Shown: positions 2,022 to 51,258 of the stretch, piece after piece | Layout: each line of letters opens with the position of its first letter | Position numbering within the stretch: the stretch's first letter is position 1 | DNA from: Candidatus Nomurabacteria bacterium | GTDB taxonomy: Bacteria; Patescibacteriota; Minisyncoccia; Phycocordibacterales; UBA9973 | DNA length: 64,000 nt | Reading direction: 5' to 3' | NCBI GenBank assembly: GCA_026395965.1 | Contig: JAPLXS010000006.1 | Span: forward strand, 118,683-182,682 | Made by a program: the position numbers and the translations under genes | Notes under the pieces: generated by a model | Seen by the model: only the letters and a program-made list of their open reading frames with translations | Databases searched by the model: none | Told to the model about the DNA's origin: nothing

Positions 2022-2495
2022 ATGAAAAAAGCAAAGGTTATCATATTGAATTATAATGGTATAGATTTTTATAAAGTAGAAGAAGTCTATGCACATGCGA
2101 AAGACACAGAGGATTGGAAACTATGGGAGCTTGTATTTCAAACTGAACATTCTACCACCTATCTAAACTCACTTGAAGCTATAGTGCTTATACAGCTTGC
2201 CAAAAAGTACAACTACTGGCGGCTATGGCAAGAAGTCATGAAGAGAAAATTTGTGTTAGATTATTTGAAAAAATTAACACCAACAGATGCTATTGATCTT
2301 GCTAGCAAGATCAACGACTGGCATTTATGGAAAATAATAATTTCAAATCAAAAAGTTTTAGATTATCTTCAAAACCTTACACCAAATGATGCTGTCATTT
2401 ATTCAAGAAAACCTGGTCGTGATCCTTTATGGAAAAAAACCATAAACAGAAAAGATGTACAAGACTATTTGTGTGAAATCGAAAAAGTGGCATAA
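2022..2495 (+). CDS. hypothetical protein with internal repeats (VLDYLKKLTPTDA / VLDYLQNLTPNDA)
   Basis: ORF with repeated ~35-aa modules. Terminator at 2514-2546. Confidence 0.4.
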   Translation: MKKAKVIILNYNGIDFYKVEEVYAHAKDTEDWKLWELVFQTEHSTTYLNSLEAIVLIQLAKKYNYWRLWQEVMKRKFVLDYLKKLTPTDAIDLASKINDWHLWKIIISNQKVLDYLQNLTPNDAVIYSRKPGRDPLWKKTINRKDVQDYLCEIEKVA

Positions 2496-2513
2496 ACTTT
2501 CATTAAAAACAAC

Positions 2514-2546
2514 AAAACGATCCTATAATAGGGTCGTTTTTTTATA
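2514..2546 (+). terminator. rho-independent terminator
   Basis: aaaacgatcctataatagggtcgttttttt. Confidence 0.65.
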
Positions 2547-2557
2547 TTGATTTCAGA

Positions 2558-2824
2558 TTATTTTAAAAACACCTCGAGTGCACCTTCGCCACCGTCTTGT
2601 ATTTTAGATTGATTATATCGAGCATTATGAGATTTTAAATAGTTTTTAACAAAATTGGGTAGTATTGGTCCATTTGCACTATTGTTCCCTTTGCCGACTA
2701 TTATGCGTACATGTTTATATTTCCTATCTTTAAATAATGATTTTAAAATAACTTCTGATTCGGCTGTTGTATGTCCATGTAGATCTATTTCTTTTTCAGC
2801 TTTTTGTTCATACTTGTTTGCCAT
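2558..2824 (-). CDS. Smr (small MutS-related) domain protein
   Basis: IDLHG ... IIVGKGNNS motifs typical of Smr nuclease domains. Confidence 0.6.
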   Translation of the reverse strand: MANKYEQKAEKEIDLHGHTTAESEVILKSLFKDRKYKHVRIIVGKGNNSANGPILPNFVKNYLKSHNARYNQSKIQDGGEGALEVFLK

Positions 2825-2844
2825 GCGACTAGTATAACACCCTA

Positions 2845-2878
2845 ATTTTAGGGGTCCAACCCCTAAAAAAGGGGTCGT
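2845..2878. repeat. hairpin element ttttaggggtCCAacccctaaaa (GGGGTCCAACCCC family)
   Basis: Perfect 10-bp stem with a CCA loop in the divergent intergenic region. The same unit is duplicated in inverted orientation at 4312-4349. Confidence 0.65.
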
Positions 2879-2896
2879 TCACACAATCCCCCATCT

Positions 2897-3379
2897 ATGC
2901 TAGAATCAAAAAAACAACGTTCTCTTAAATACAAAATCATGGAAAATAAAAATGAGGTTCTATATATTGACCGCTCAATACCCTTTGACCTAGAAGAATT
3001 TATAGGCCATGGATGGTCTATAGTTGACCAAGACAACAAGGCCTTAGATATAAGTAGTATACTTATATCAGAGATTATACTAGAAAAAATATTTGGCGAA
3101 AAAAATGAAGACAAGATTAAATACTTAAATGAGCAAAACTATGTAGAGTTAGACCCTAAGGTACTTGAAGCATTCTGGAATAATCAAGAATTAATTCCCG
3201 AGGAATGGAAAAAAGAATCATATGTTTTTTTCGGTGCACTTGTTTTTAAAAACTGCTACGAAGGAGAACATCATTTTGTATTGTGCTTGTATTGGCGATT
3301 CAACCAATGGCATTGGGGATGCTACGATATTAGTCATGATTTTGTAAAGGCTAGCCCTTGTGCGATTATGCATATCTAA
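2897..3379 (+). CDS. hypothetical protein (160 aa)
   Basis: ORF with a terminator hairpin at 3407-3440. No recognisable domain. Confidence 0.35.
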   Translation: MLESKKQRSLKYKIMENKNEVLYIDRSIPFDLEEFIGHGWSIVDQDNKALDISSILISEIILEKIFGEKNEDKIKYLNEQNYVELDPKVLEAFWNNQELIPEEWKKESYVFFGALVFKNCYEGEHHFVLCLYWRFNQWHWGCYDISHDFVKASPCAIMHI

Positions 3380-3492
3380 TTATGCAAAAAATTTAAACAA
3401 TATCTTTACCCTTTGTATTTTACACAAAGGGTATTTTTATTTATTAATAAAAAAAGCTATCACATATGTGACAGCTTTTGTTTTAATTAGAC

Positions 3493-4251
3493 TTACTTTT
3501 TTGAATTAAAAAATAATGCAATTTTTTTAATAATGAAAAATCTTGCCTCAGAATAATGTGGGGGTGTATTTTTAAGTGCCTCCATTAATTCAACAACATT
3601 TTTAGCAATTATACCCTCATTCATAGAAATCTTTTCCCATTTTTTAAGAGCTTTAAATTTAGCATTAGAATTTTCCGGTGAAAGTTCGCAAACTTCTTTT
3701 ATTTCTTTGCTATTTTTAGCAACTTCTTCCATTTTCAACAAAATCATTGTTGCAACATAAGAATTTTTGTGAACAGTCCCAAGTAATTTTTTAAGGAGCT
3801 GATAATTTTTTCCAACTTTTAAGAACTGGTCCAAGGAAAGCGCCTCATTTTTTGCTAAAGCCACTTGTTTGGCTTCAGAATTTTGAGGTGATTCTCTTAA
3901 TACCTTTTTAAAATCCTCTTGTGTTTTAATTTTATTCGCTTCTATCAAAGATAGTTCATCCCACTTCTTAAAGGCCAGTGCTTCATAAATAGTACCTACA
4001 GACACATTTTTAAACACTTTTCTTGCTTCTGTAGGACTAGTAACAAAACTTAACCAATCAATAAGTGCTTGTAATCTTTCATCAGAATATGCATCAGCTG
4101 AAAGAAAATTAATTCTTGCTTCGTCTATATTTTTCGGTTTATTACTATTTGCTTTTAGCGGCAAACCTAAAGCGAATTCGATTGTTGGAACAGATATTTT
4201 GGTTACACTAGCCATTTCAGAAATATCTACATTATTCTCATTTGAATCCAT
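3493..4251 (-). CDS. hypothetical protein with internal SPxxSEAK/ARK repeats
   Basis: Repeated ~55-aa modules (TSPTEARKVF, SPQNSEAKQVALAK, SPENSNAKFKALKKW, TPPHYSEARFF). Bidirectional terminator at 3453-3486. Confidence 0.4.
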   Translation of the reverse strand: MDSNENNVDISEMASVTKISVPTIEFALGLPLKANSNKPKNIDEARINFLSADAYSDERLQALIDWLSFVTSPTEARKVFKNVSVGTIYEALAFKKWDELSLIEANKIKTQEDFKKVLRESPQNSEAKQVALAKNEALSLDQFLKVGKNYQLLKKLLGTVHKNSYVATMILLKMEEVAKNSKEIKEVCELSPENSNAKFKALKKWEKISMNEGIIAKNVVELMEALKNTPPHYSEARFFIIKKIALFFNSKK

Positions 4252-42081: not shown

Positions 42082-43833
42082 TTATGACAATGGGCTTTTG
42101 TTATAACCATCTGTATTATATATTTTAAACTTATTATTTATATAACCTTTGGTTATTTTAATAGGATTTGAAGTATACACAACACTGTAAGTTCCATCTG
42201 CATTTATATTTTCTACCCTTACATAATAATCTCCGTTTGGTACCAAGCAATAATATTTGCCAGATTTATTTGCAACATTTTTTGCTATTTCGTGATCTAG
42301 CCAAACAGAATAAACTTTCATGACTCCAAATGATACTGGTTTGCCATTTCTCTTGTTTGTAACATAACCCAAAGGACTAGGATCAAAAATAAAATCTTTT
42401 AATATAAACAATAAAACATATAGACCGAAAATTATTAGATTGTATATATTATCTGAAACTAGAACTGATACAGATGACAACGCAAACCCAGAATAAAAGA
42501 CTACAATCAAAATATGATACATTATTAAATCAAAAGTAGAATAGAATTTCTTTGTTTTTGGATCTTGTTTTTTAGATTCATCCATATCAAATACAACTGG
42601 ATCAATAGGAATATTTCTTTTAACAATCTCCCCTTCTTTGATTGTTACCAATTCACTTCTATATATATTTATATACAACTCGTCGTCTATATTTTCTTTT
42701 ATTTTTTGTGATGGGAATTGATAATTATTTTTAATAACTATTATTTTGTATTTACCTTCAGGAACCATAAATCCATAACGTCCATCAATATCTGTAATAG
42801 CTGTTGCAATATTGTTGCCTTGTAAATCTTGCAAAACAACTTTTGCCATATCAATAGGTAATTTTGTAACACTACTGTAAACAACTCCCCATGGATGATT
42901 TCTCTTTAAAATAATAAAAGCCAAGAGCCATAAAATCAAAAGATAAATAATTATAGAAAATATTTTTAACAATGAAGAAAGTTTGGTGTGTAATACAGGA
43001 AACAAAGAAAGATAACTTGTTTCTGTTATTATTTTGGTTACGAAACCACTGGTTTTCGATTGAAATATTTCAGGTGGATTAATATTATTTAAAACAGGTT
43101 CAACAGTGGTAGTATCTATACTTGGAATTGTTTTTGGAACAACAGGAAGTACCGGGTAAGTAACTGGTGGGTTGGTTGGATTACAATCTGAACCTATACA
43201 TGACGAAGGCAAGCAAGTAGGATCGGTTGGATGAAGAACACAGAAAGATATACTTCCCCCATTGTTGTCGGGTGGAGTTACTACCACAACATCTGAACCA
43301 GGACGCCAGTCTGTAGTAACACAATAGCTAGGACTTGAGCAGTCAAATTTTATCCAACCATTGTTTTGACTCCAAGCATACCCGTTGAATTGACCTAAAT
43401 TATTTATAACAACAGGTGTTGCGGAGCTATTTGAAAATGGACCAAAATTCACCCATCCTGAAGTCTGCCCCCATGCGTATCCAGATAACTGACCACTAGT
43501 ATTGTTTGCGACTTTAAAATTGCCATTTATACTACCACAACCACTTGTTGTATTTGAGCAGTTTAGAACCACCCAACCGAAAGACGCTCCCCAGATATAA
43601 CCAGAAAGAGAATCGCTAGTAACATGAACATTTGATGCAGGATTATTTGTAAAATAACCAAAATTTATAGGTGAAGTAACAGTGACTAAACATGCCGCTG
43701 TCTCACACACCTGAGCAGTGTGATTTGTACTATCTATCGTACCGTTTGTAGTGGATGCTCTAACTTGAAACGACCCCAACAAAAGTATCGAAAGGAAAAT
43801 ATATTTAAGATATTTTTTATAGTTTATTTGCAT
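42082..43833 (-). CDS. secreted Cys-rich polytopic membrane protein with GYxWG...GWxxF repeats and two carboxypeptidase-regulatory-like beta-sandwich segments
   Basis: Signal peptide, three SGYAWGxxxGWVNF-type repeats, many Cys, three internal TM helices, and DIDGRYGFMVPEGKYKIIV / KSGKYYCLVPNGDYYVRV motifs. Confidence 0.5.
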   Translation of the reverse strand: MQINYKKYLKYIFLSILLLGSFQVRASTTNGTIDSTNHTAQVCETAACLVTVTSPINFGYFTNNPASNVHVTSDSLSGYIWGASFGWVVLNCSNTTSGCGSINGNFKVANNTSGQLSGYAWGQTSGWVNFGPFSNSSATPVVINNLGQFNGYAWSQNNGWIKFDCSSPSYCVTTDWRPGSDVVVVTPPDNNGGSISFCVLHPTDPTCLPSSCIGSDCNPTNPPVTYPVLPVVPKTIPSIDTTTVEPVLNNINPPEIFQSKTSGFVTKIITETSYLSLFPVLHTKLSSLLKIFSIIIYLLILWLLAFIILKRNHPWGVVYSSVTKLPIDMAKVVLQDLQGNNIATAITDIDGRYGFMVPEGKYKIIVIKNNYQFPSQKIKENIDDELYINIYRSELVTIKEGEIVKRNIPIDPVVFDMDESKKQDPKTKKFYSTFDLIMYHILIVVFYSGFALSSVSVLVSDNIYNLIIFGLYVLLFILKDFIFDPSPLGYVTNKRNGKPVSFGVMKVYSVWLDHEIAKNVANKSGKYYCLVPNGDYYVRVENINADGTYSVVYTSNPIKITKGYINNKFKIYNTDGYNKSPLS

Positions 43834-43856: not shown

Positions 43857-46800
43857 TTATAAAACTGGCAGAGCAGGAGTTTCAGTAGTATCTGCTGGTG
43901 GTGGAACTACGGCAGCAGGAGTTTCTACTGCTGGTGGTACTACTTCGACAGGAGGAATATTTGTATCCCCAGGAACGACAACTGAAGCGTCAACAGGAGG
44001 TGTATCTGAAGTTGTTGTATCTGTTATTGATGTTGCACCTGTTGTTGCAGATGAGCCTGATGTTGATGGAATTAATTGTTTTAATTTAATAAGATCAGTC
44101 TTGTTGATACACTCATACGAACCATCTGGGTCAGTAAGACAAATCTCTCCAGTAAAGATGCGAGTTATCTTATTTGCCGCATTAGATAACCATGCAAAGA
44201 GACTATCTCTCCATGTATTTTGTATAGTCATATCAGCTATTCCTGTTATTTTTAGATTCATCTCTCTTATCGCTTCTACTATGATAGGTGTCATCTGCGC
44301 GTAGTACACGGACTTGTACCCTTGTGAATCTGTTGCTACGAGTTGAGGAAAATATTGCTCCAAATCTTGAGCGAGGAATCCAACTTGTTGTGGAGATGCT
44401 GGATTTTCCAACCAGTTATAAGTAACTGTTTTTACTTTCAACAAGTTATCTAAAGTATTATCAGATAGATTTATAATATTTGTCTTTAGTCTTTCATCTG
44501 AAGTACAAGCGATACCTGTACCAGTAGTGATAGTACACTGAGTAGAAGAAGAGCCATTTATACGAGTAGTATTTATCGGTCTATTGGCAGAACCTACTAT
44601 AAACTGATTTGCGGCTGTATTGGTTGCGTATGCACCTATTGCTATACTGTTTGAAAAGCTTCCTGCGCTCGTGGCATGACCAATTAGGATAGAAGTATCG
44701 GCGAATGTAGTAGTGTCATTGTATACAGCTGTATTGTTGACTGTATTATTGTATCCTGAATTTCTACCAATAAATATTGAGTTGGCAGCATTTGTAGCAT
44801 TGTACCCTGCACTACTTCCAAAGAAATTTGAGTTAATAGCGTTAGCTGCACCATACCCTGACAATAAACCAAAAAAGTTTGAGTTATTGGCTGAAGTAGC
44901 ACCACTTCCGGAATTTTTTCCAAAGAAGTTTGAATATGAAGCAGTAGTTGCACCACTTCCTGCATTCGGACCAAAGAAGTTTGAGTTAATAGCTGAGGTT
45001 GCATTATACCCTGTAGCTCCTCCAAAGAAATTAGAGTTGTTAGCTGAGGTTGCACCATATCCTGAAAGTGCCCCAAAGAAATTAGAAGAAAAAGCACTAG
45101 TTGCATTTTGTCCGGCGCCGTTTCCCATAAAGATGGTACCATTAGCAGATGCTGTACCTTGGTTGCCACCAATAAAAATTGAGTTGATCTGTCTGTTAAC
45201 AGAACCTACCATAAACTGATTTGCGGCTGTATTGGTTGCGTATGCACCTATTGCAATACTGTTTGAGTACCCTCCTGTACCAGTACCATGGCCTAGGAGG
45301 ATTGAAGTATTGGCAAAAGTAGTTACATCGTCATATACAGAAGTATTAACAACGGTATCATTTAAGCCTGAATTTGTACCTATAAATATTGAGTTGGCTG
45401 CACTAGTTGCACTATGTCCTGCATCTGTTCCAAAGAAATTTGAATAAGCAGCAGAACCAGCTTGATTTCCTGCGTTTAATCCGAAGAAGTTTGAGTTGTT
45501 AGCGGAATTAGCACTACTTCCTGCATATGATCCAAAGAAATTTGAATCATGGGCATTGACAGAACTACTTCCTGCACTTGTTCCAAAGAAGCTTGATTGA
45601 TTCGCATAAGTTGCACCATTTCCTGCATTAGAACCAAAGAAATTTGAATTCGAAGCACCGGTTGCTAGTACTCCTGTATTAACTCCAAAGAAGTTTGATG
45701 CATAAGCACCAGTAGCACCCCATCCCGCCCAATACCCGAAAAAGTTTGAGCTATTAGCATTGGTTGCATTTATTCCCGATTTTACACCAAAGAAGTTTGA
45801 GCCATAGGCACTAGTTGCTGATAATCCCGCATCAGCACCAAAGAAGTTTGATGCACTAGCACCAGTAGCAAGCTTTCCTGCATTAGAACCAAAGAAGTTT
45901 GAACTATTAGAACTGGTTGCACCATATCCTGCACTATGACCAAAGAAGTTTGAGTTATTTGCACTGGTTGCACCATTTCCTGCATCTGTACCAAAGAAGT
46001 TTGAATATGGAGCAGAACTAGCATGATACCCCGCAAGATAACCAAAGAAGTTGGAAGCATCAGAATTTGTGGCTCCGTCACCTGCATTTGATCCAAAAAA
46101 GTTTGAGCTATTAGCATTGGTTGCGCCATTTCCTGCATATGATCCAAAGAAATTTGAACCACTTGCATTGGTTGCACTATTCCCTGCATTAATTCCAAAG
46201 AAGTTTGAAACATTGGCAAGAGAAGCATTAAGTCCTGCATTAACTCCAAAGAAGTTTGAATTAGATGCGCCAGTTGCACCACTTCCTGCATCTGTTCCAA
46301 AGAAGTTTGAATTATCTGCACTAGTTGCATTTTTACCCGCACTATTACCCATAAAGATTGTATTTTGAACAGATGCTGTGCCTTGATTGCCTCCAATAAA
46401 AATTGAGTTAATTGGTCTGTTAGCAGAACCTACCATAAACTGATTGGAATATGTATTGGTTGTATACGCACCTAATGCAATACTATTTGAGTACCCTCCA
46501 GTGCTAGTACTATGACCAATGAGGATGGAGGTGTCGGCGAAGGTAGTAGTCTCATTGTACAATGCAGTATTGTTTACAAGATCATTATTACCTGAATTAG
46601 TACCTATAAATATTGAGTTGGCAGCATTGGTTGCAGAATAACCCGCAGAAGAACCAAAGAAATTTGAATTAAATGCAAAAGTAGCTGTGCTTCCTGCACT
46701 TGGTCCAAAGAAGTTTGACGCAAGGGCATTTGTTGCGTTTGTTCCCGCAGAAGAACCGAAGAAATTTGAGCTACTGGCCTCAGTTGCACCATGACCTGAA

Positions 46801-49493
46801 TCTGTTCCAAAGAAGTTTGAGCCATTTGCATTTGTGGCACCATCACCTGCATTTGCTCCAAAGAAATTAGAATAATAAGCATTATAAGCATTGAGTCCTG
46901 AGCTTGATCCAAAGAAGTTGGAGTTATTTGCAGCAGTTGCATTTTCACCTGCACTTACGCCAAAAAAGTTTGAGGCAGTGGCGACAGTTGCATTTCTTCC
47001 TGCACTTAATCCAAAGAAGTTTGATTGGTTAGATAAACTTGCTCCATCTCCGGCATAACTTCCAAAAAAGTTTGAGTTGTTGGCATCAGTTGCATTTTGA
47101 CCAGAAAATGTACCAAAGAAGTTTGAGCTGTAAGCATTAGTTGCACTTATTCCTGAAAAATTTCCAAAGAAGTTTGAATTATTGGCACCACTAGCATTTT
47201 GACCAGAAAATGTACCAAAGAAGTTTGAGTGGTCGGCTGCATTTGCACCGTCACCTGCATTTTGTCCAAAGAAGTTAGAGTTATTGGCAGCAGTTGCATT
47301 TAGTCCAGAATTAAGTCCTAAAAAGTTTGAATAAGAAGCATCGGTAGCACTAAGTCCTGCATTCGCTCCCGAGAAGTTTGAATCATTTGCTTTTGTTGCA
47401 CCGTTTCCTGCACTTGGTCCAAAGAAGTTGGATGAGTAAGCTGAATTTGCACCTAAACCTGTGCTTGATCCAAAGAAATTTGAGTTGTTGGCACTAGTTG
47501 CACCATTTCCTGCGTCTGTACCAAAGAAGTTTGAGTTTGAGGCGGAAGCTGCATTCAATCCTGCGTTATTTCCCATAAAGATTGTACCAATTACTGATGC
47601 TGTGCCTTTGTTTCCGCCAATAAAAATAGAATTTATAGGTCTGTTATCAGAACCTACCACAAACTGATTGGGTGCTGTGTTGGTTGAGTATGCACCTATT
47701 GCAATACTATTTGAGAAACCACCAGTATTTGTATTGTGACCAAGGAGAATGGATGTATCAGCGAAGGTGGTAGTATCATCATACACTGCAGTATTGTTTA
47801 CTGTATCATTGTATCCTGAATTTTTACCAATAAATATTGAATTGGCGGCATTGATTGCATGATTTCCCGCATAATAACCAAAGAAATTTGAATCATAAGA
47901 ATTGTTTAAATTATTGGAATCTCCTCTTCCTGCATTTGATCCAAAAAAGTTTGAATTAGAAGCATTATTAGAATAAATTCCTGAGGAAGGTCCAAAGAAG
48001 TTTGAACTACTAGCACCATTTGCACTATTACCTGCACTATACCCAAAGAAGTTTGAGTAAGTAGAATTTATAGCTCCATATCCTGCTGTTTGTCCAAAAA
48101 AGTTTGAATAAGATGCACCTTCAGCAATTTTACCAGCTCTATCTCCAAAAAAATTTGAACCATCAAGACCTAAAATTCCCTCCCCAGCACTTCTACCAAA
48201 AAGGTTTGAACTAATTATATTTACTCCACCATTACCTGCATCTCTTCCAAAGAAGTTAGATTCGTAAGCATATATAGCTCCTAGGCCAGCACCTTCTCCA
48301 AAAAAATTTGAGTTGTAAGCACCAATTCCACCGCTTCCTGCATTTAGTCCAAAGAAGTTTGAACTTGTAGCATCAGTTGCATTCAATCCTGCGTTTGTTC
48401 CAAAGAAGTTTGAGTTAGCTGCGTTAGTAGCACTACTTCCTGCGCTTGTTCCAAAGAAATTGGAGTTAGCAGCAGCAGTTGCACTATTACCTGCGCTTGG
48501 TCCAAAGAAATTGGAGCTATTAGCACCAGTTGCACCAAACCCTGAATTGTCTCCAAAGAAGTTTGAATTATCTGCATTAGTTGCACCACTTCCTGCACTT
48601 AATCCAAAGAAATTTGATTTAGCAGCATTGGTTGCACCATCTCCTGCATTTGATCCAAAGAAGTTGGAACTACTCGCATTGGTTGCATTTGATCCAGATG
48701 CATAGCCTAAGAAGTTTGAGAAGGAGGCAGAAGCTGCATTCAATCCCGCATTTGTTCCAAAGAAGTTTGAATTAGAGGCGCCAGTGGCACCACTTCCAGC
48801 ATTATTTCCAAAGAAGTTTGACGAGAAGGCATTGGTTCCATTCAACCCAGCTCCATAACCTAAGAAGTTTGAATTATCAGCATTGGTCGCACCACTTCCT
48901 GCATTTTTTCCAAAGAAGTTTGAGTAAGTAGCAGACGAGCTTGATCCTGAGCCTGTTAGTCCTGTAGAAAAAAGTGATGTGGTGTTTTGTACTGTAATAG
49001 GTGAAGACACTACTGTCCCCCATGCTATATCTGTACCGTTGGTAGTGAGAAATTGACCCGCAATACCAGAGACAGATGGGATAACAACTTTCCAATCTGA
49101 AGATAAAGTAAGACAACGATTTTGATTGGCATCCAAAGAAGAGTCAGTGACAGTTGTTGTACAAGCTGGGTACCCTCCGCGGTTTGTAACTAGACGATAA
49201 GTTGCTGTCTGATTTCCTGCTGTGCCAGAGTCGGTATCTATAACAGTTGCTATCATTCCTAGAGATCTTCTTTCACTTGTGATAGCAAGTAGAGCTGTCA
49301 TATCTGCTACTTGCATGTGTCCTCCTTGGAGGTAGTTTGTATCAGCGATAGCAAAGTAACCGTTCCCTACTCCGAGAGTAGTAGGTACAGCTAGACCTCC
49401 GTTTTGAGAATAAGCTCGATATGAAAATGAACCAACCATAAGTAGGACGGTTGTAATAAAAAATATTTTTGTTTTAAGGTCTATTATTTTCAT
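43857..49493 (-). CDS. giant (1878 aa) secreted tail-fibre-like repeat protein with C-terminal Peptidase_S74 intramolecular chaperone domain
   Basis: Signal peptide. N-terminal fibre-like motif GQFLTTNGTDIAWGTV. More than 90 tandem 15-aa repeats (SNFFGxxAGxGATxA). Four higher-order ~100-aa modules (SIFIG.NSG...FADTSIL.GH...NQF.VGS.NRPINSIFIGGN). TSDERLKTNI...YNW...GF.AQDLEQ..P.LV matches the S74 autoproteolytic chaperone. A Pro/Thr/Val-rich tail follows. Confidence 0.7.
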   Translation of the reverse strand: MKIIDLKTKIFFITTVLLMVGSFSYRAYSQNGGLAVPTTLGVGNGYFAIADTNYLQGGHMQVADMTALLAITSERRSLGMIATVIDTDSGTAGNQTATYRLVTNRGGYPACTTTVTDSSLDANQNRCLTLSSDWKVVIPSVSGIAGQFLTTNGTDIAWGTVVSSPITVQNTTSLFSTGLTGSGSSSSATYSNFFGKNAGSGATNADNSNFLGYGAGLNGTNAFSSNFFGNNAGSGATGASNSNFFGTNAGLNAASASFSNFLGYASGSNATNASSSNFFGSNAGDGATNAAKSNFFGLSAGSGATNADNSNFFGDNSGFGATGANSSNFFGPSAGNSATAAANSNFFGTSAGSSATNAANSNFFGTNAGLNATDATSSNFFGLNAGSGGIGAYNSNFFGEGAGLGAIYAYESNFFGRDAGNGGVNIISSNLFGRSAGEGILGLDGSNFFGDRAGKIAEGASYSNFFGQTAGYGAINSTYSNFFGYSAGNSANGASSSNFFGPSSGIYSNNASNSNFFGSNAGRGDSNNLNNSYDSNFFGYYAGNHAINAANSIFIGKNSGYNDTVNNTAVYDDTTTFADTSILLGHNTNTGGFSNSIAIGAYSTNTAPNQFVVGSDNRPINSIFIGGNKGTASVIGTIFMGNNAGLNAASASNSNFFGTDAGNGATSANNSNFFGSSTGLGANSAYSSNFFGPSAGNGATKANDSNFSGANAGLSATDASYSNFLGLNSGLNATAANNSNFFGQNAGDGANAADHSNFFGTFSGQNASGANNSNFFGNFSGISATNAYSSNFFGTFSGQNATDANNSNFFGSYAGDGASLSNQSNFFGLSAGRNATVATASNFFGVSAGENATAANNSNFFGSSSGLNAYNAYYSNFFGANAGDGATNANGSNFFGTDSGHGATEASSSNFFGSSAGTNATNALASNFFGPSAGSTATFAFNSNFFGSSAGYSATNAANSIFIGTNSGNNDLVNNTALYNETTTFADTSILIGHSTSTGGYSNSIALGAYTTNTYSNQFMVGSANRPINSIFIGGNQGTASVQNTIFMGNSAGKNATSADNSNFFGTDAGSGATGASNSNFFGVNAGLNASLANVSNFFGINAGNSATNASGSNFFGSYAGNGATNANSSNFFGSNAGDGATNSDASNFFGYLAGYHASSAPYSNFFGTDAGNGATSANNSNFFGHSAGYGATSSNSSNFFGSNAGKLATGASASNFFGADAGLSATSAYGSNFFGVKSGINATNANSSNFFGYWAGWGATGAYASNFFGVNTGVLATGASNSNFFGSNAGNGATYANQSSFFGTSAGSSSVNAHDSNFFGSYAGSSANSANNSNFFGLNAGNQAGSAAYSNFFGTDAGHSATSAANSIFIGTNSGLNDTVVNTSVYDDVTTFANTSILLGHGTGTGGYSNSIAIGAYATNTAANQFMVGSVNRQINSIFIGGNQGTASANGTIFMGNGAGQNATSAFSSNFFGALSGYGATSANNSNFFGGATGYNATSAINSNFFGPNAGSGATTASYSNFFGKNSGSGATSANNSNFFGLLSGYGAANAINSNFFGSSAGYNATNAANSIFIGRNSGYNNTVNNTAVYNDTTTFADTSILIGHATSAGSFSNSIAIGAYATNTAANQFIVGSANRPINTTRINGSSSTQCTITTGTGIACTSDERLKTNIINLSDNTLDNLLKVKTVTYNWLENPASPQQVGFLAQDLEQYFPQLVATDSQGYKSVYYAQMTPIIVEAIREMNLKITGIADMTIQNTWRDSLFAWLSNAANKITRIFTGEICLTDPDGSYECINKTDLIKLKQLIPSTSGSSATTGATSITDTTTSDTPPVDASVVVPGDTNIPPVEVVPPAVETPAAVVPPPADTTETPALPVL
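44700..48950. repeat. intragenic 45-bp tandem repeat region (ccaaagaagtttga... units) encoding SNFFG repeats
   Basis: The recurring motifs ccaaagaagtttgag / ccaaagaaatttga are visible throughout the giant gene. Confidence 0.75.
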
Positions 49494-49512
49494 TATTTAT
49501 ATAACTTGCAAA

Positions 49513-50112
49513 CTATTTTATCGTGAACACAGATGAAACTCCTGTGTCTCTTGATCTATAAACATAATACTCTTGAGAGTCGTAAGACTGCACAGATCTA
49601 ACCATTACAGGATACGCTCCGATAGGTGTCATAAAACAAGTAGTATAGGTAGATGCGTCGTGACTGCACCCCTGCTCGGGTTCAAATGATTTTAGCCAAG
49701 CAAAGTAAATATACTCTGAACTTTTGGCATTGAATGATTGAGTACCTATAGAAGTTCTTGAAGTTCCGAAAACAGAGGAAACTGGTGTAAGGTTTGAAAA
49801 TTTGACTAGGGTTCCGTCGGGCTCTGCACTATAACCATAAAATACTTTTCCATTACCTTTTATTATTTTATTTATAGTGTCACTTTCTGTATTTTTTGTA
49901 TTTACATCTGTTGTTGTCTTCTCTCCAACACCAAGCAAAGTACCACTATTGATATTTAAATCTTTATTTTCAGCAAATGAAATATCTTGAATCTTTGTGT
50001 CTGGAGAATAATTTATTTTATATTTTTGATAAAAGAATATACACAAAACAATAATTATTGTAATTAGTATTATTATCTTTAAAAAATTTTTATCTTTCAT
50101 GTAATTTTTCAT
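49513..50112 (-). CDS. membrane-anchored secreted protein; paralogue of 50116..51258 (shared ~110-aa C-terminal Cys-pair domain)
   Basis: N-terminal TM anchor. The C-terminal domain (KVFYGYSAEPDGTLV...YIYFAWLKSF...GCSHD...CFMTPIGAY...YYVYRSRD) aligns with the neighbour. Confidence 0.5.
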   Translation of the reverse strand: MKNYMKDKNFLKIIILITIIIVLCIFFYQKYKINYSPDTKIQDISFAENKDLNINSGTLLGVGEKTTTDVNTKNTESDTINKIIKGNGKVFYGYSAEPDGTLVKFSNLTPVSSVFGTSRTSIGTQSFNAKSSEYIYFAWLKSFEPEQGCSHDASTYTTCFMTPIGAYPVMVRSVQSYDSQEYYVYRSRDTGVSSVFTIK

Positions 50113-50115
50113 AAT

Positions 50116-51258
50116 TTATTGGATTGTATAGGTTGCACTTGGGTTAATATCGTATGATCTATAAACCCAGTAAAGAATACCATTTCTTGTCTGTTGCGTA
50201 CGAACAAAGTTTGAGACATATCCAAGTGGTGTAGAGAAACAATCGGCTGCTCCTAGCCCATCGTGCTTACAGATTGTACCGGCATCAAAAGCTTGAGGCC
50301 AAGCAAAGTAAATATAATTTCCACCAGAGAGATTAAATGTACGACTTGCAGGAATAGATGTTCTAGCTGTAGAACTAGCAAGAGCAACAGATGTAAGAGT
50401 ATTCAAGTCTACAAGTGTTCCGTCAGATTGTGTAGATGAACCATAAAATACTTTTGATCTATAAACCACAGTTGATGTAGCAGCGACAACATTTGGTGGG
50501 TTTACACCACTTGCAACAGAACCAGCTCCACTAGACTGAGTACAAGATCCGGCTGCTGCTTGGAGTGCGCTACAAGGATAAGCTGTAAATGAAAATGTAG
50601 CTGTGCCGTTTAGAGTATTGTATGCAGCTGAGTTTGCAATATAAACCAAAGTACCAGAACCACTAGCTGCCCCACCTGAAATAGTTGAAGGCTGAGGACC
50701 AGAAGAGTATGTTGCATTTGAAGGAGTCACAGAACTTGCTCCGTAAATATAGAAACTGTTTCCATCACTATCTGCGGGACTTTTAGATAGAGACCAACCC
50801 AAAGAAATGTTTGTTGAATCTCCAACTTCTCTGACTGTAGTGGTAGCTGTATTGGATGCAATAATATTGCCAGATGGAGCCACGTATACAAATAATAATT
50901 TCTTTATGAAATCGTGCATTGAGGTAGCAGATGTTGGAGTATGAGTAGCTCCATTTGCGAGTGTAATTCCTGTAACACTTTTGTTCAGAAGATCAGAAAA
51001 ATCACTTTCCCATGATACGCCACCAACTCCGTTGGAAACAAGATTTTGATTTAGAATACCACCAGATGGAAAAATACTAACAAAACAATTTGGATCTCCT
51101 GGTGCACAAGCTGGGTCTAAAGTTTCTCCAGGTCCATAAGGACTTCCAGTCGCAAAGATTTTAAAGTATGCACCAAAAAGTATAACAATGAGAATTATGG
51201 CTACAAATTTTGGCCAGTGTTTAGATATAAAATTAAAATAGATGGAATCTCTTTTCAT
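50116..51258 (-). CDS. membrane-anchored secreted protein with S/T/A/G-rich spacer; paralogue of 49513..50112
   Basis: N-terminal TM anchor. The C-terminal domain (KVFYGSSTQSDGTLV...YIYFAWPQAF...CKHD...CFSTPLGY...YWVYRSYD) is shared. Confidence 0.5.
   Translation of the reverse strand: MKRDSIYFNFISKHWPKFVAIILIVILFGAYFKIFATGSPYGPGETLDPACAPGDPNCFVSIFPSGGILNQNLVSNGVGGVSWESDFSDLLNKSVTGITLANGATHTPTSATSMHDFIKKLLFVYVAPSGNIIASNTATTTVREVGDSTNISLGWSLSKSPADSDGNSFYIYGASSVTPSNATYSSGPQPSTISGGAASGSGTLVYIANSAAYNTLNGTATFSFTAYPCSALQAAAGSCTQSSGAGSVASGVNPPNVVAATSTVVYRSKVFYGSSTQSDGTLVDLNTLTSVALASSTARTSIPASRTFNLSGGNYIYFAWPQAFDAGTICKHDGLGAADCFSTPLGYVSNFVRTQQTRNGILYWVYRSYDINPSATYTIQ

Follow-up and report, generated by a model that had tools for sequence, protein, structure and literature searches.

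The long tail fibre of phage T4 (gp34-gp35-gp36-gp37) is encoded and joined serially, C-terminus to N-terminus. The C-terminal domains of phage fibres are usually their ligand-binding tips, and S74 chaperone domains drive trimerisation. A giant protein of the Peptidase_S74 (PF13884) tail-fibre/endosialidase kind is encoded in the window (the whole 64,000-nt stretch analysed here), on a chromosome of the CPR/Patescibacteria, which are mostly obligate episymbionts whose host-cell attachment is largely unknown. The giant gene is preceded by genes for proteins of 380 aa and 199 aa, in that order (Table 1). These two proteins end in a common domain of ~120 aa (CTD), and the giant begins, behind its signal peptide, with a second domain (HEAD). 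In the reading that we tentatively favour, to which we give slightly less than an even chance, the CTD is a socket for the HEAD plug of the fibre and tethers the fibre to the cell membrane.

The gene cluster and its chromosomal setting

The cluster is tightly packed, with spacers of 3 nt between the 380-aa and 199-aa ORFs and 19 nt between the 199-aa ORF and the giant fibre gene. The giant, which had been expected directly downstream, is 1878 aa long and matches Pfam Peptidase_S74 at E = 3.7e-15. The 583-aa ORF that follows is probably the last gene of the operon and is also kept after the giant in L007. Because a promoter and terminator scan of 41.9-52.3 kb scored no better than shuffled sequence, it is from the 3-nt and 19-nt spacers only that we read the operon structure. 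The NCBI version of the 199-aa ORF starts at the next ATG and is 195 aa long.

The setting is not viral: the locus belongs to a CPR chromosome, has housekeeping flanks and is syntenic with a second CPR genome. The cluster lies between genes for an M50 protease, L28 and ComEC and the rpsL-rpsG-fusA genes (S12, S7 and EF-G), with SOD also among the flanking genes. The layout M50-CTD-giant-CarboxypepD_reg-rpsL-rpsG is repeated in a Paceibacteria genome (L007), and M50 is likewise upstream of the cluster in L002. It is highly improbable, in our estimate, that the locus is a prophage in decay or some other phage remnant that does nothing for the cell, even though CTD, Ig-like module, HEAD and S74 all have phage tail-fibre relatives and GC content is higher at 44-50 kb (0.39, vs ~0.31 in the flanks). 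Besides the housekeeping flanks and the recurrence of the layout in L007 and of M50 before the L002 cluster, the ORFs are intact, and the CPR members group in a single clade that has gained signal or anchor sequences as well as Cys pairs. No other phage genes were found around the cluster within the window, and no block of phage structural and replication genes is present at the locus. A prophage origin was rejected on the housekeeping synteny.

Table 1. Features of the cluster in window coordinates, with the basis of each assignment
Feature	Position	Strand	Basis or remark
380-aa ORF, NTU81_01495: signal/anchor, Cys knot, Ig-like module, CTD	50116..51258	-	ORF call, AF2 model
199-aa ORF, NTU81_01490: TM anchor, polar linker, CTD	49513..50112	-	ORF call
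Giant 1878-aa fibre gene: signal peptide, HEAD, 61 SNFFG repeats, Peptidase_S74	43857..49493	-	
583-aa ORF: signal peptide, GYxWGxxGW repeats, 3 TM segments, CarboxypepD_reg	42082..43833	-	
380-aa protein, hydrophobic segment, aa 17-36, K-FVAIILIVILFGAYF-KIFA	51151..51210	-	hydropathy; AF2 helix 6-29
380-aa protein, LDPACAPGDPNC motif, C51-x6-C58	51085..51120	-	common to P0003, P0008, P0011, P0016 and L002/L007/L071 proteins
380-aa protein, Ig-like middle module (probable), aa 112-257, 'KKLLFVYVAPSG...REVGDS..ISLGWS'	50488..50925	-	homology, AF2
380-aa protein, CTD, aa 258-380, C330-x9-C340	50119..50487	-	profile, AF2 pLDDT 85-96
199-aa protein, TM anchor (probable), aa 13-28, IIILITIIIVLCIFFY	50029..50076	-	hydropathy 2.98 (Kyte-Doolittle, 19 residues)
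199-aa protein, CTD, aa 78-199, C149-x9-C159	49516..49881	-	profile, AF2 model pLDDT 84.9
Giant, HEAD, aa 32-166, 'FAIADTNYLQGGHMQVAD...ERRSLGMIATV...TYRL...DW'	48996..49400	-	proposed CTD partner
Giant, Peptidase_S74 intramolecular chaperone domain, aa 1665-1719	44337..44501	-	Pfam

The CTD family and its two classes

The two small proteins are homologous over their C-terminal ~125 residues (BLASTP, 52/133 identities or 39%, E = 1e-25), as the original prediction had proposed, and the alignment reproduces the motif string written at that time. When searched against the six-frame translation of the window, the CTD profile found these two ORFs and no others (E = 3.5e-33 and 6.3e-32). We defined the family by profiles A2 and A5, with the signature KxYYGxS...TSR...YIYFAWPxSF...YxVYRS. 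A2 matches the 380-aa protein at E = 3.5e-34 and the 199-aa protein at E = 6.2e-33; both are among the top matches in a search of 1.84 billion proteins, where the family is rare (~30 representatives). When the 199-aa protein was the sole query, a word-indexed search for homologues returned only the protein itself. The 46 family sequences collected all carry the domain at their extreme C-terminus (258-380 of 380 and 78-199 of 199 in the window).

For the CTD we found no match among Pfam, NCBIfam, PHROG or PDB sequence entries, in keeping with the earlier failure to recognise a domain: both proteins were compared with Pfam, NCBIfam and PHROGs, and CTD profiles A1 and A5 with PDB sequences, all without a match. 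Membership of the pair among Tfa-type assembly proteins was rejected on the same absence of Pfam, NCBIfam and PHROG matches, and membership of the S74 family because the defining domain is absent, with no S74 match at E up to 1 in either ORF and a match only in the downstream giant. A literature search found no description of the CTD or HEAD domains or of such CPR loci. The domain is thus new in the sense of an unnamed family, but it is not confined to these two proteins, being common to phage tail fibres. The predicted fold is a beta-sandwich (AF2). In a Foldseek comparison with BFVD it matches predicted phage proteins with TM 0.60-0.65 and probability 1.0, and the only structural relatives recovered are predicted phage tail-fibre or structural proteins.

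The family falls into two classes, one of phage tail-fibre proteins without a signal sequence or Cys pair, the other a single CPR clade (24 leaves in a neighbour-joining tree) with an N-terminal signal or anchor and two paired cysteines in the loop that follows YFAWP. N-terminal hydrophobic segments are present in all CPR-class members, and both window proteins show the two features of this class. The conserved cysteines had been described as Cys-x8-Cys; the pair stands (C330/C340 and C149/C159), with the spacing corrected to C-x9-C. It is found in 24/24 secreted or anchored members of the CPR clade and in 0/72 phage-type members, and this perfect correlation with export signals leads us to predict that it forms a disulfide staple. 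All cysteines outside membrane segments in the 380-, 199- and 1878-aa proteins sit in local pairs. Given this local pairing and the N-terminal hydrophobic segments, any contact between CTD and HEAD would be extracellular.

N-terminal TM anchors had been proposed for both proteins. Each does have a hydrophobic segment, but in the 380-aa protein (Kyte-Doolittle maximum 1.81 over 19 residues) the segment may be either a signal peptide, with cleavage possible after IFA, or a signal anchor; the sites compared in this protein and its relatives read IFA/IG, AYA/TP and VLA/SP. The N-terminus of the 199-aa protein is K-rich and has no A-x-A-like site, and its segment is probably an uncleaved signal anchor with N-in topology. 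By eye, the hydrophobic and charged tail of a sortase sorting signal is absent at both C-termini (...TYTIQ and ...VFTIK). The S/T/A/G-rich stretch of the 380-aa protein does have the biased composition noted before (54% S/T/A/G at aa 96-257), but we do not regard it as a low-complexity spacer. It aligns with a conserved pre-CTD module (motif LLYxYxxP...E.G....L.W) in relatives that include phage proteins, and AF2 places beta strands there at moderate confidence (pLDDT 50-80), so that it is probably a folded Ig-like domain. The module, which holds a second local Cys pair (C229/C239), is homologous to the one found before the CTD in tail-fibre proteins of phages.

CTD genes are followed by HEAD genes

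The CTD is linked to HEAD by gene order. The loci recovered with the CTD number 32 (6 CPR, 4 phage and 22 IMG/VR, with L002 ending inside its last CTD gene), and in all of them each complete run of CTD-ending genes is directly followed by a same-strand HEAD-first ORF. Starting from HEAD, an HMM-detectable CTD was present in the preceding ORF in 31/38 loci, with a divergent CTD-like end in 2 more; the detectable upstream CTD is missing in 7/38. Nowhere else in the flanks of the HEAD-seeded loci was a HEAD found. All loci in hand provide 54 distinct CTD-HEAD junctions (38 clusters at 60% CTD identity), with HEAD usually starting 30-50 nt past the CTD stop. CTD genes are directly upstream of the HEAD-fibre gene in 9/9 recovered CPR loci, and a small TM-CTD gene stands directly before it in the window, L001, L071 and L073/L074. 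In L073 and L074, genes before the HEAD...CTD gene lack a detectable CTD. Proteins that have both HEAD and CTD, some of them very long (2402 aa in L073), carry the CTD at the far fibre end, where a tip function would be natural. What comes directly after the 380-aa gene in the window is the 199-aa gene and not the HEAD gene, so that gene order does not tell the roles of the two paralogues apart.

The suggested co-occurrence with S74 giants extends to other genomes, as S74 is in the HEAD gene at 4/4 CPR loci where that gene is complete (window, L007, L008 and L071). Likewise, the proposed fibre-associated role for the pair (accessory, tip or assembly) gains support: there is no match to a characterised family unrelated to fibres, and the adjacency to the giant is kept in relatives. 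Chains of the form X-CTD, HEAD-CTD, HEAD-CTD, HEAD-... occur in L025, L027, L057 and L066, and HEAD-only proteins of 75-86 aa are found after CTD genes, which together suggest that HEAD is a unit in its own right and is coupled to the CTD. Pairwise identities of CTD and HEAD correlate with a Pearson coefficient of 0.43, which is uninformative since shared ancestry alone would give such a value. The adjacency itself could also arise if two genes are inherited together as a cassette, or if one product acts as chaperone for the other.

Given the usual role of fibre C-termini, the CTD might instead be a distal ligand-binding tip. Both small proteins would then be short adhesins on the cell surface, expressed together with the giant, and the gene order would be a product of fibre-gene clustering. 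We consider this unlikely, as it leaves the near-obligate two-way CTD-HEAD junction and the HEAD-only mini-proteins unexplained. In addition, the 199-aa protein, with its linker of ~50 aa, would be unlikely to reach past the cell envelope. Among related phages of a single group, identity is 56-72% in the CTD and 68-83% in HEAD, against 43-56% in the Ig-like module before the CTD, and the CTD signature is kept across phages of Bacteroides, Acidobacteria and CPR-like cells. Such conservation fits a structural joint better than a variable receptor tip.

A further reading makes the CTD a permanent nucleus for trimerisation and folding, an uncleaved alternative to S74, and HEAD its Tfa-like assembly chaperone or cap, in some cases joined to another fibre. 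On this view the pair are small envelope trimers with some other function, and the giant's N-terminus helps them to fold. CPR-locus fibres end in either CTD or S74 and never both, and HEAD-only proteins are small and highly conserved, as this would have it. There is also a precedent, since what lies downstream of a tail-fibre gene is often a gene for a chaperone capping the fibre tip, a concept found in two studies (PMC10579305, PMC9608196). Like the HEAD proposed here, lambda Tfa, T4 gp38, Pam3 gp25 and the Alteromonas phage caps are encoded after the fibre gene and bind the fibre C-terminal domain. HEAD differs from these caps in having no Pfam or PHROG match to their families, known Tfa families among them, and in being mostly the N-terminus of long structural proteins (up to 2135 aa). 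The PHROGs that it matches either have no assigned function or carry a generic annotation ('tail protein', 'virion structural protein'), and the latter point to a structural component. In CPR loci HEAD comes behind the signal peptide of a secreted giant, where a chaperone would be out of place. The HEAD profile matched nothing in Pfam or PDB, and HEAD is likewise absent from NCBIfam. On balance, we find the folding reading quite improbable.

A candidate plug and socket, and its counterparts in phages

Under the socket reading, the window CTD would be a cellular, disulfide-stapled form of the C-terminal module of some phage tail-fibre proteins and would bind HEAD at the N-terminus of the adjacent downstream gene's product. 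For phages, such a contact would link a fibre segment with the protein after it. For the window, it would fix the secreted 1878-aa fibre to the cell membrane, where the 199-aa protein would be held by its N-terminal signal anchor, with the 380-aa protein either anchored or secreted. The HEAD-fibres of CPR loci have signal peptides and no anchor of their own. The giant fibre is presumably trimeric, by analogy with other proteins whose trimerisation is driven by S74 chaperone domains. More broadly, and with somewhat more reserve, we suggest that CTD and HEAD may make up an undescribed, portable plug and socket for serial or branched fibres, common to diverse phages (with hosts including Bacteroides and Acidobacteria) and to Paceibacteria/Nomurabacteria; the CPR socket would carry an anchor and a disulfide loop, and giant S74 fibres would sit on the cell in just the way that a fibre segment sits on a virion.

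The CTD-HEAD rule defines two domains absent from Pfam, NCBIfam and PDB, the CTD being absent from PHROG too. If the joint is real, it would be a new one, through which phage receptor-binding fibres are assembled and exchanged as modules, and would aid the annotation and engineering of phage host range; cultured systems with CTD-HEAD pairs exist in Bacteroides phage DAC23 and Tunturiibacter phage Tunturi_5. For CPR, the locus offers a testable parts list of membrane-tethered candidate sockets, a giant fibre that bears a signal peptide and the corresponding candidate plug, and an S74 maturation domain. It is conserved beside housekeeping genes in several Paceibacteria, and giant S74-matured fibres are candidate host-attachment organelles of these episymbionts.

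The closest counterparts of the window pair are phage tail-fibre proteins such as Tunturi_5 gp28 ('tail fiber protein', XOB77471.1), Bacteroides phage DAC23_83 (QIG64361.1) and those of IMG/VR loci L011-L032. They share with the pair the Ig-like module and CTD (signature KxYWGxS...TSR...YIYFAWPxSF...TNxSG...YxVYRS), the extreme C-terminal position of the CTD and the HEAD-first gene downstream. In contrast to the window proteins, which combine a hydrophobic N-terminal segment with an inserted C-x9-C loop and are encoded on a CPR chromosome, the phage members have virion-type N-termini (collagen, coiled coil), no signal or anchor and no Cys pair. Against S74 proteins, the pair differs in lacking S74, with CTD and S74 as alternative C-termini. 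As for the proposed joint itself, the serially joined T4 gp34-gp35-gp36-gp37 and the branched receptor-binding-protein adaptor systems of G7C (gp66/gp63.1) and the CBA120 tailspikes resemble CTD-HEAD in that consecutive genes encode products thought to be joined C- to N-terminus, with conserved joints and variable intervening parts.

The gene pair and its shared C-terminal domain

The 380-aa and 199-aa proteins align at 39% identity over 133 residues (BLASTP E 1e-25), an alignment covering the motif string on which the original prediction had based a paralogous pair with a shared C-terminal domain (CTD), and in the six-frame translation of the window a CTD profile matches these two ORFs only. 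Both have the N-terminal hydrophobic segment expected of the proposed anchors, and the proposed cysteine pair is present in the CTD of each, although spaced C-x9-C and not C-x8-C. The supposed S/T/A/G-rich low-complexity spacer of the larger protein is instead probably an Ig-like domain. The larger protein's sequence is exactly that of NTU81_01495, encoded on a 333-kb contig of a Candidatus Nomurabacteria MAG; the NCBI start of the smaller gene lies four codons later, giving 195 aa (MKDKNFL...) against 199 aa for the longest ORF. The 380-aa protein also contains LDPxCxPG(D/E)xNC (C-x6-C), a motif that other CPR members of the family carry at their mature N-terminus (P0003, P0008, P0011, P0016 and those of loci L007 and L071).

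Features of the window and of related loci
Feature	Location	Strand	Remark
380-aa ORF	window 50116..51258	-	paralogue of 199-aa ORF
199-aa ORF	window 49513..50112	-	3 nt from 380-aa ORF
Giant 1878-aa ORF	window 43857..49493	-	19 nt beyond 199-aa ORF
583-aa protein gene	window 42082..43833	-	after giant
LDPxCxPG(D/E)xNC motif	window 51085..51120	-	directly follows signal/anchor segment
Raised GC	window 44001..50000		~0.39; flanks 0.29-0.33
X-CTD, HEAD-CTD, HEAD-CTD, HEAD-... chains	L025 5206..11974; L027 3891..6914; L057; L066		consecutive genes
2402-aa CPR protein gene	L073 1739..8950; L074 895..8124		N-terminal HEAD, C-terminal CTD
HEAD-only gene	L011 6324..6581		overlaps CTD gene's stop codon
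HEAD-first genes	L056; L061-L063 (about 2300..3990); L053		upstream ORF: no HMM-detectable CTD

The claimed novelty stood insofar as no match covering the CTD was found in Pfam, NCBIfam, PHROG or PDB sequences, but the family is shared with phages and not restricted to this pair. When 1.84 billion representatives were searched exhaustively by HMMER with a profile built from four sequences, only 30 proteins reached E <= 1e-3, with the CTD at the extreme C-terminus in all 30. From a 44-sequence alignment, AF2 confidently predicts a beta-sandwich of eight strands and a short helix (CTD of the 199-aa protein: pLDDT 84.9, pTM 0.79; model of the whole 380-aa protein: pLDDT 85-96 for the CTD and only 50-80 for the middle module), and the nine Foldseek matches at E < 1e-3 among predicted viral structures (TM 0.60-0.65 across the whole domain) are phage proteins, some from crAss-like phages, labelled 'tail fiber protein' or uncharacterised. 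Weaker matches, with E up to 4e-3, bear names such as 'baseplate wedge protein' and 'structural protein'. By tblastn, the combined Ig-like and CTD module occurs in gp28 ('tail fiber protein') of Tunturiibacter phage Tunturi_5, in Bacteroides thetaiotaomicron phages DAC16/19/20/22/23 and SJC03, and in two uncultured-phage records of ~640 kb each.

Neighbour-joining of 96 CTDs places the 24 members with a Cys pair in one clade free of intruders, whose organism-named members are Nomurabacteria or Paceibacteria. All members of this CPR clade have an N-terminal hydrophobic segment except P0009, a 5'-truncated sequence, and the pair (C-x9 to x19-C) sits in a loop inserted after YFAWP. Where the segment is missing, the N-terminus is of tail-fibre type (collagen repeats, coiled coils, tail-fibre PHROGs), the context is a phage one and there is no Cys pair; one phage-type member, P0038, has the segment and still no pair. 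In the 380-, 199- and 1878-aa proteins, each cysteine that lies outside a membrane segment belongs to a local pair. This confinement of Cys pairs to the clade, together with their local pairing, supports, short of proof, a putative extracytoplasmic disulfide in the CPR class.

HEAD domains downstream of the CTD

The giant's N-terminal 160 residues comprise a signal peptide and then a domain termed HEAD ('FAIADTNYLQGGHMQVAD..ERRSLGMIATV..TYRL..DW'), and match at 42% identity (E 1e-28) the N-terminus of P0002, a relative in which HEAD is fused to a middle module and CTD of the 380-aa-protein type. Each of the four phage loci examined first has the HEAD core (..Y.TH...YG.GG.r.V...eRd.I..RR..GM.V.V....Y.L....W) at the start of the gene immediately following the CTD gene. 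HEAD matches nothing in Pfam or PDB; its PHROG matches are 25379 ('tail protein'), 24134 ('virion structural protein') and two of unknown function, 23630 and 10818.

Among loci recovered through the CTD, a HEAD-first gene follows each complete run of CTD genes in 6 of 6 CPR, 4 of 4 phage and 22 of 22 IMG/VR loci (L002 ends inside its last CTD gene), and three more CPR loci (L071, L073, L074) have the same order. Deduplication leaves 54 distinct junctions, which fall into 38 clusters at 60% CTD identity and usually have 30-50 nt from CTD stop to HEAD start. In 31 of 38 IMG/VR loci seeded by HEAD alone, the ORF ending just before HEAD contains an HMM-detectable CTD, and in two further loci it has a divergent CTD-like end; HEAD was seen nowhere else in the flanks. 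The CTD-HEAD pairing is newly recognised and near-obligate.

HEAD proteins vary in length from 75-86 aa, as HEAD-only mini-proteins that are highly conserved among related phages (68-83% identity), to 2135 aa, and the mini-proteins are encoded directly after the CTD gene in L011, L013, L024, L029-L032, L041 and L044. Chains of consecutive genes with repeated CTD-then-HEAD junctions (table) suggest serial or branched fibre assemblies. The genes before the 2402-aa gene, whose product has a weak DUF5907 match, lack a detectable CTD and are an exception to the junction rule; the upstream ORF of L056 and that of L061 have a CTD-like 'Y.VY.K' stretch ~150 aa short of the C-terminus, with an extra domain after it.

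A chromosomal fibre locus

As had been proposed, the pair lies directly upstream of the fibre gene, whose product has a Pfam Peptidase_S74 domain (aa 1665-1719, E 3.7e-15) and 61 SNFFG-type repeats arranged in blocks. Conserved ~110-aa spacers (IFIGxNSGxND...TTFAxTSILxGH...NQFxVGSxNRxINxIFIGGNxGTAS) part the blocks, ~160 residues including a Pro-rich tail extend beyond the S74 domain, and opposite-strand ORFs inside the gene are probably repeat artefacts.

The four genes (380, 199, 1878 and 583 aa) share one strand, flanked at one end by M50 protease, L28, ComEC and SOD genes and at the other by rpsL, rpsG and fusA. Co-occurrence with an S74 giant was also found in L007, a Paceibacteria genome with the same layout: MBL-fold ComEC part, M50, CTD protein, 2178-aa HEAD...S74 giant, 630-aa CarboxypepD_reg protein, rpsL and rpsG. 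We rejected a prophage on these housekeeping flanks and the shared layout, which leave a phage remnant highly improbable; this is a chromosomal CPR locus. The raised GC could reflect Gly/Ala/Ser-rich coding or a foreign origin of the fibre cluster. Because the 630-aa counterpart follows the giant in L007, the 583-aa protein may belong to the system as its fourth component; it combines a signal peptide with GYxWGxxGW repeats, three TM segments, a CarboxypepD_reg domain, and five local Cys pairs plus one unpaired Cys.

The recurrent CPR order begins with a gene encoding a signal peptide, the LDPxCxPGDxNC motif, an Ig-like module and a CTD, followed by an optional HEAD...CTD gene, a small TM-CTD protein and a HEAD...giant ending in S74; L001, L002 and L073/L074 have the second and third in other relative positions. 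The small TM-CTD gene directly precedes the HEAD-fibre gene in the window, L001, L071 and L073/L074, and CPR HEAD-fibres have signal peptides and no anchor of their own.

A possible fibre joint and its relation to known systems

The simplest model using every part, which we hold tentatively at slightly under even odds, is that the CTD binds HEAD, a contact we infer. Phages would thereby couple a proximal fibre protein to the protein that follows or to a small cap; on the CPR cell, the secreted, S74-matured fibre would be held by its HEAD on the membrane-tethered CTD of the 199-aa protein, and perhaps also on that of the 380-aa protein. Conservation within one phage group gives modest further support: CTD (56-72% identity) and HEAD (68-83%) vary less than the Ig-like module ahead of the CTD (43-56%), which fits a joint and not a variable receptor tip. 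Alternatively, the CTD could be an adhesin tip and the gene order cassette inheritance, a distinctly less probable reading. Less probable again is a folding role, with the CTD as nucleus and HEAD as a Tfa-like chaperone or cap. Since both alternatives still imply a CTD-fibre relationship, the broad fibre-associated role originally proposed is well supported, as also by the CTD-then-HEAD junction.

The 380-aa and 199-aa proteins are not members of the S74 or Tfa families, because the defining domains were looked for and are absent. With the serially joined T4 long tail fibre and with fibre-chaperone gene pairs the likeness is one of logic, no homology having been found. The nearest relatives are the unnamed C-terminal modules of phage tail-fibre proteins, which share signature, position and downstream partner; the window proteins differ in their export or anchor sequences, putative disulfide loop and cellular setting. 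If the inferred CTD-HEAD binding holds, the window system would represent phage-fibre modules serving as a membrane-mounted fibre system.
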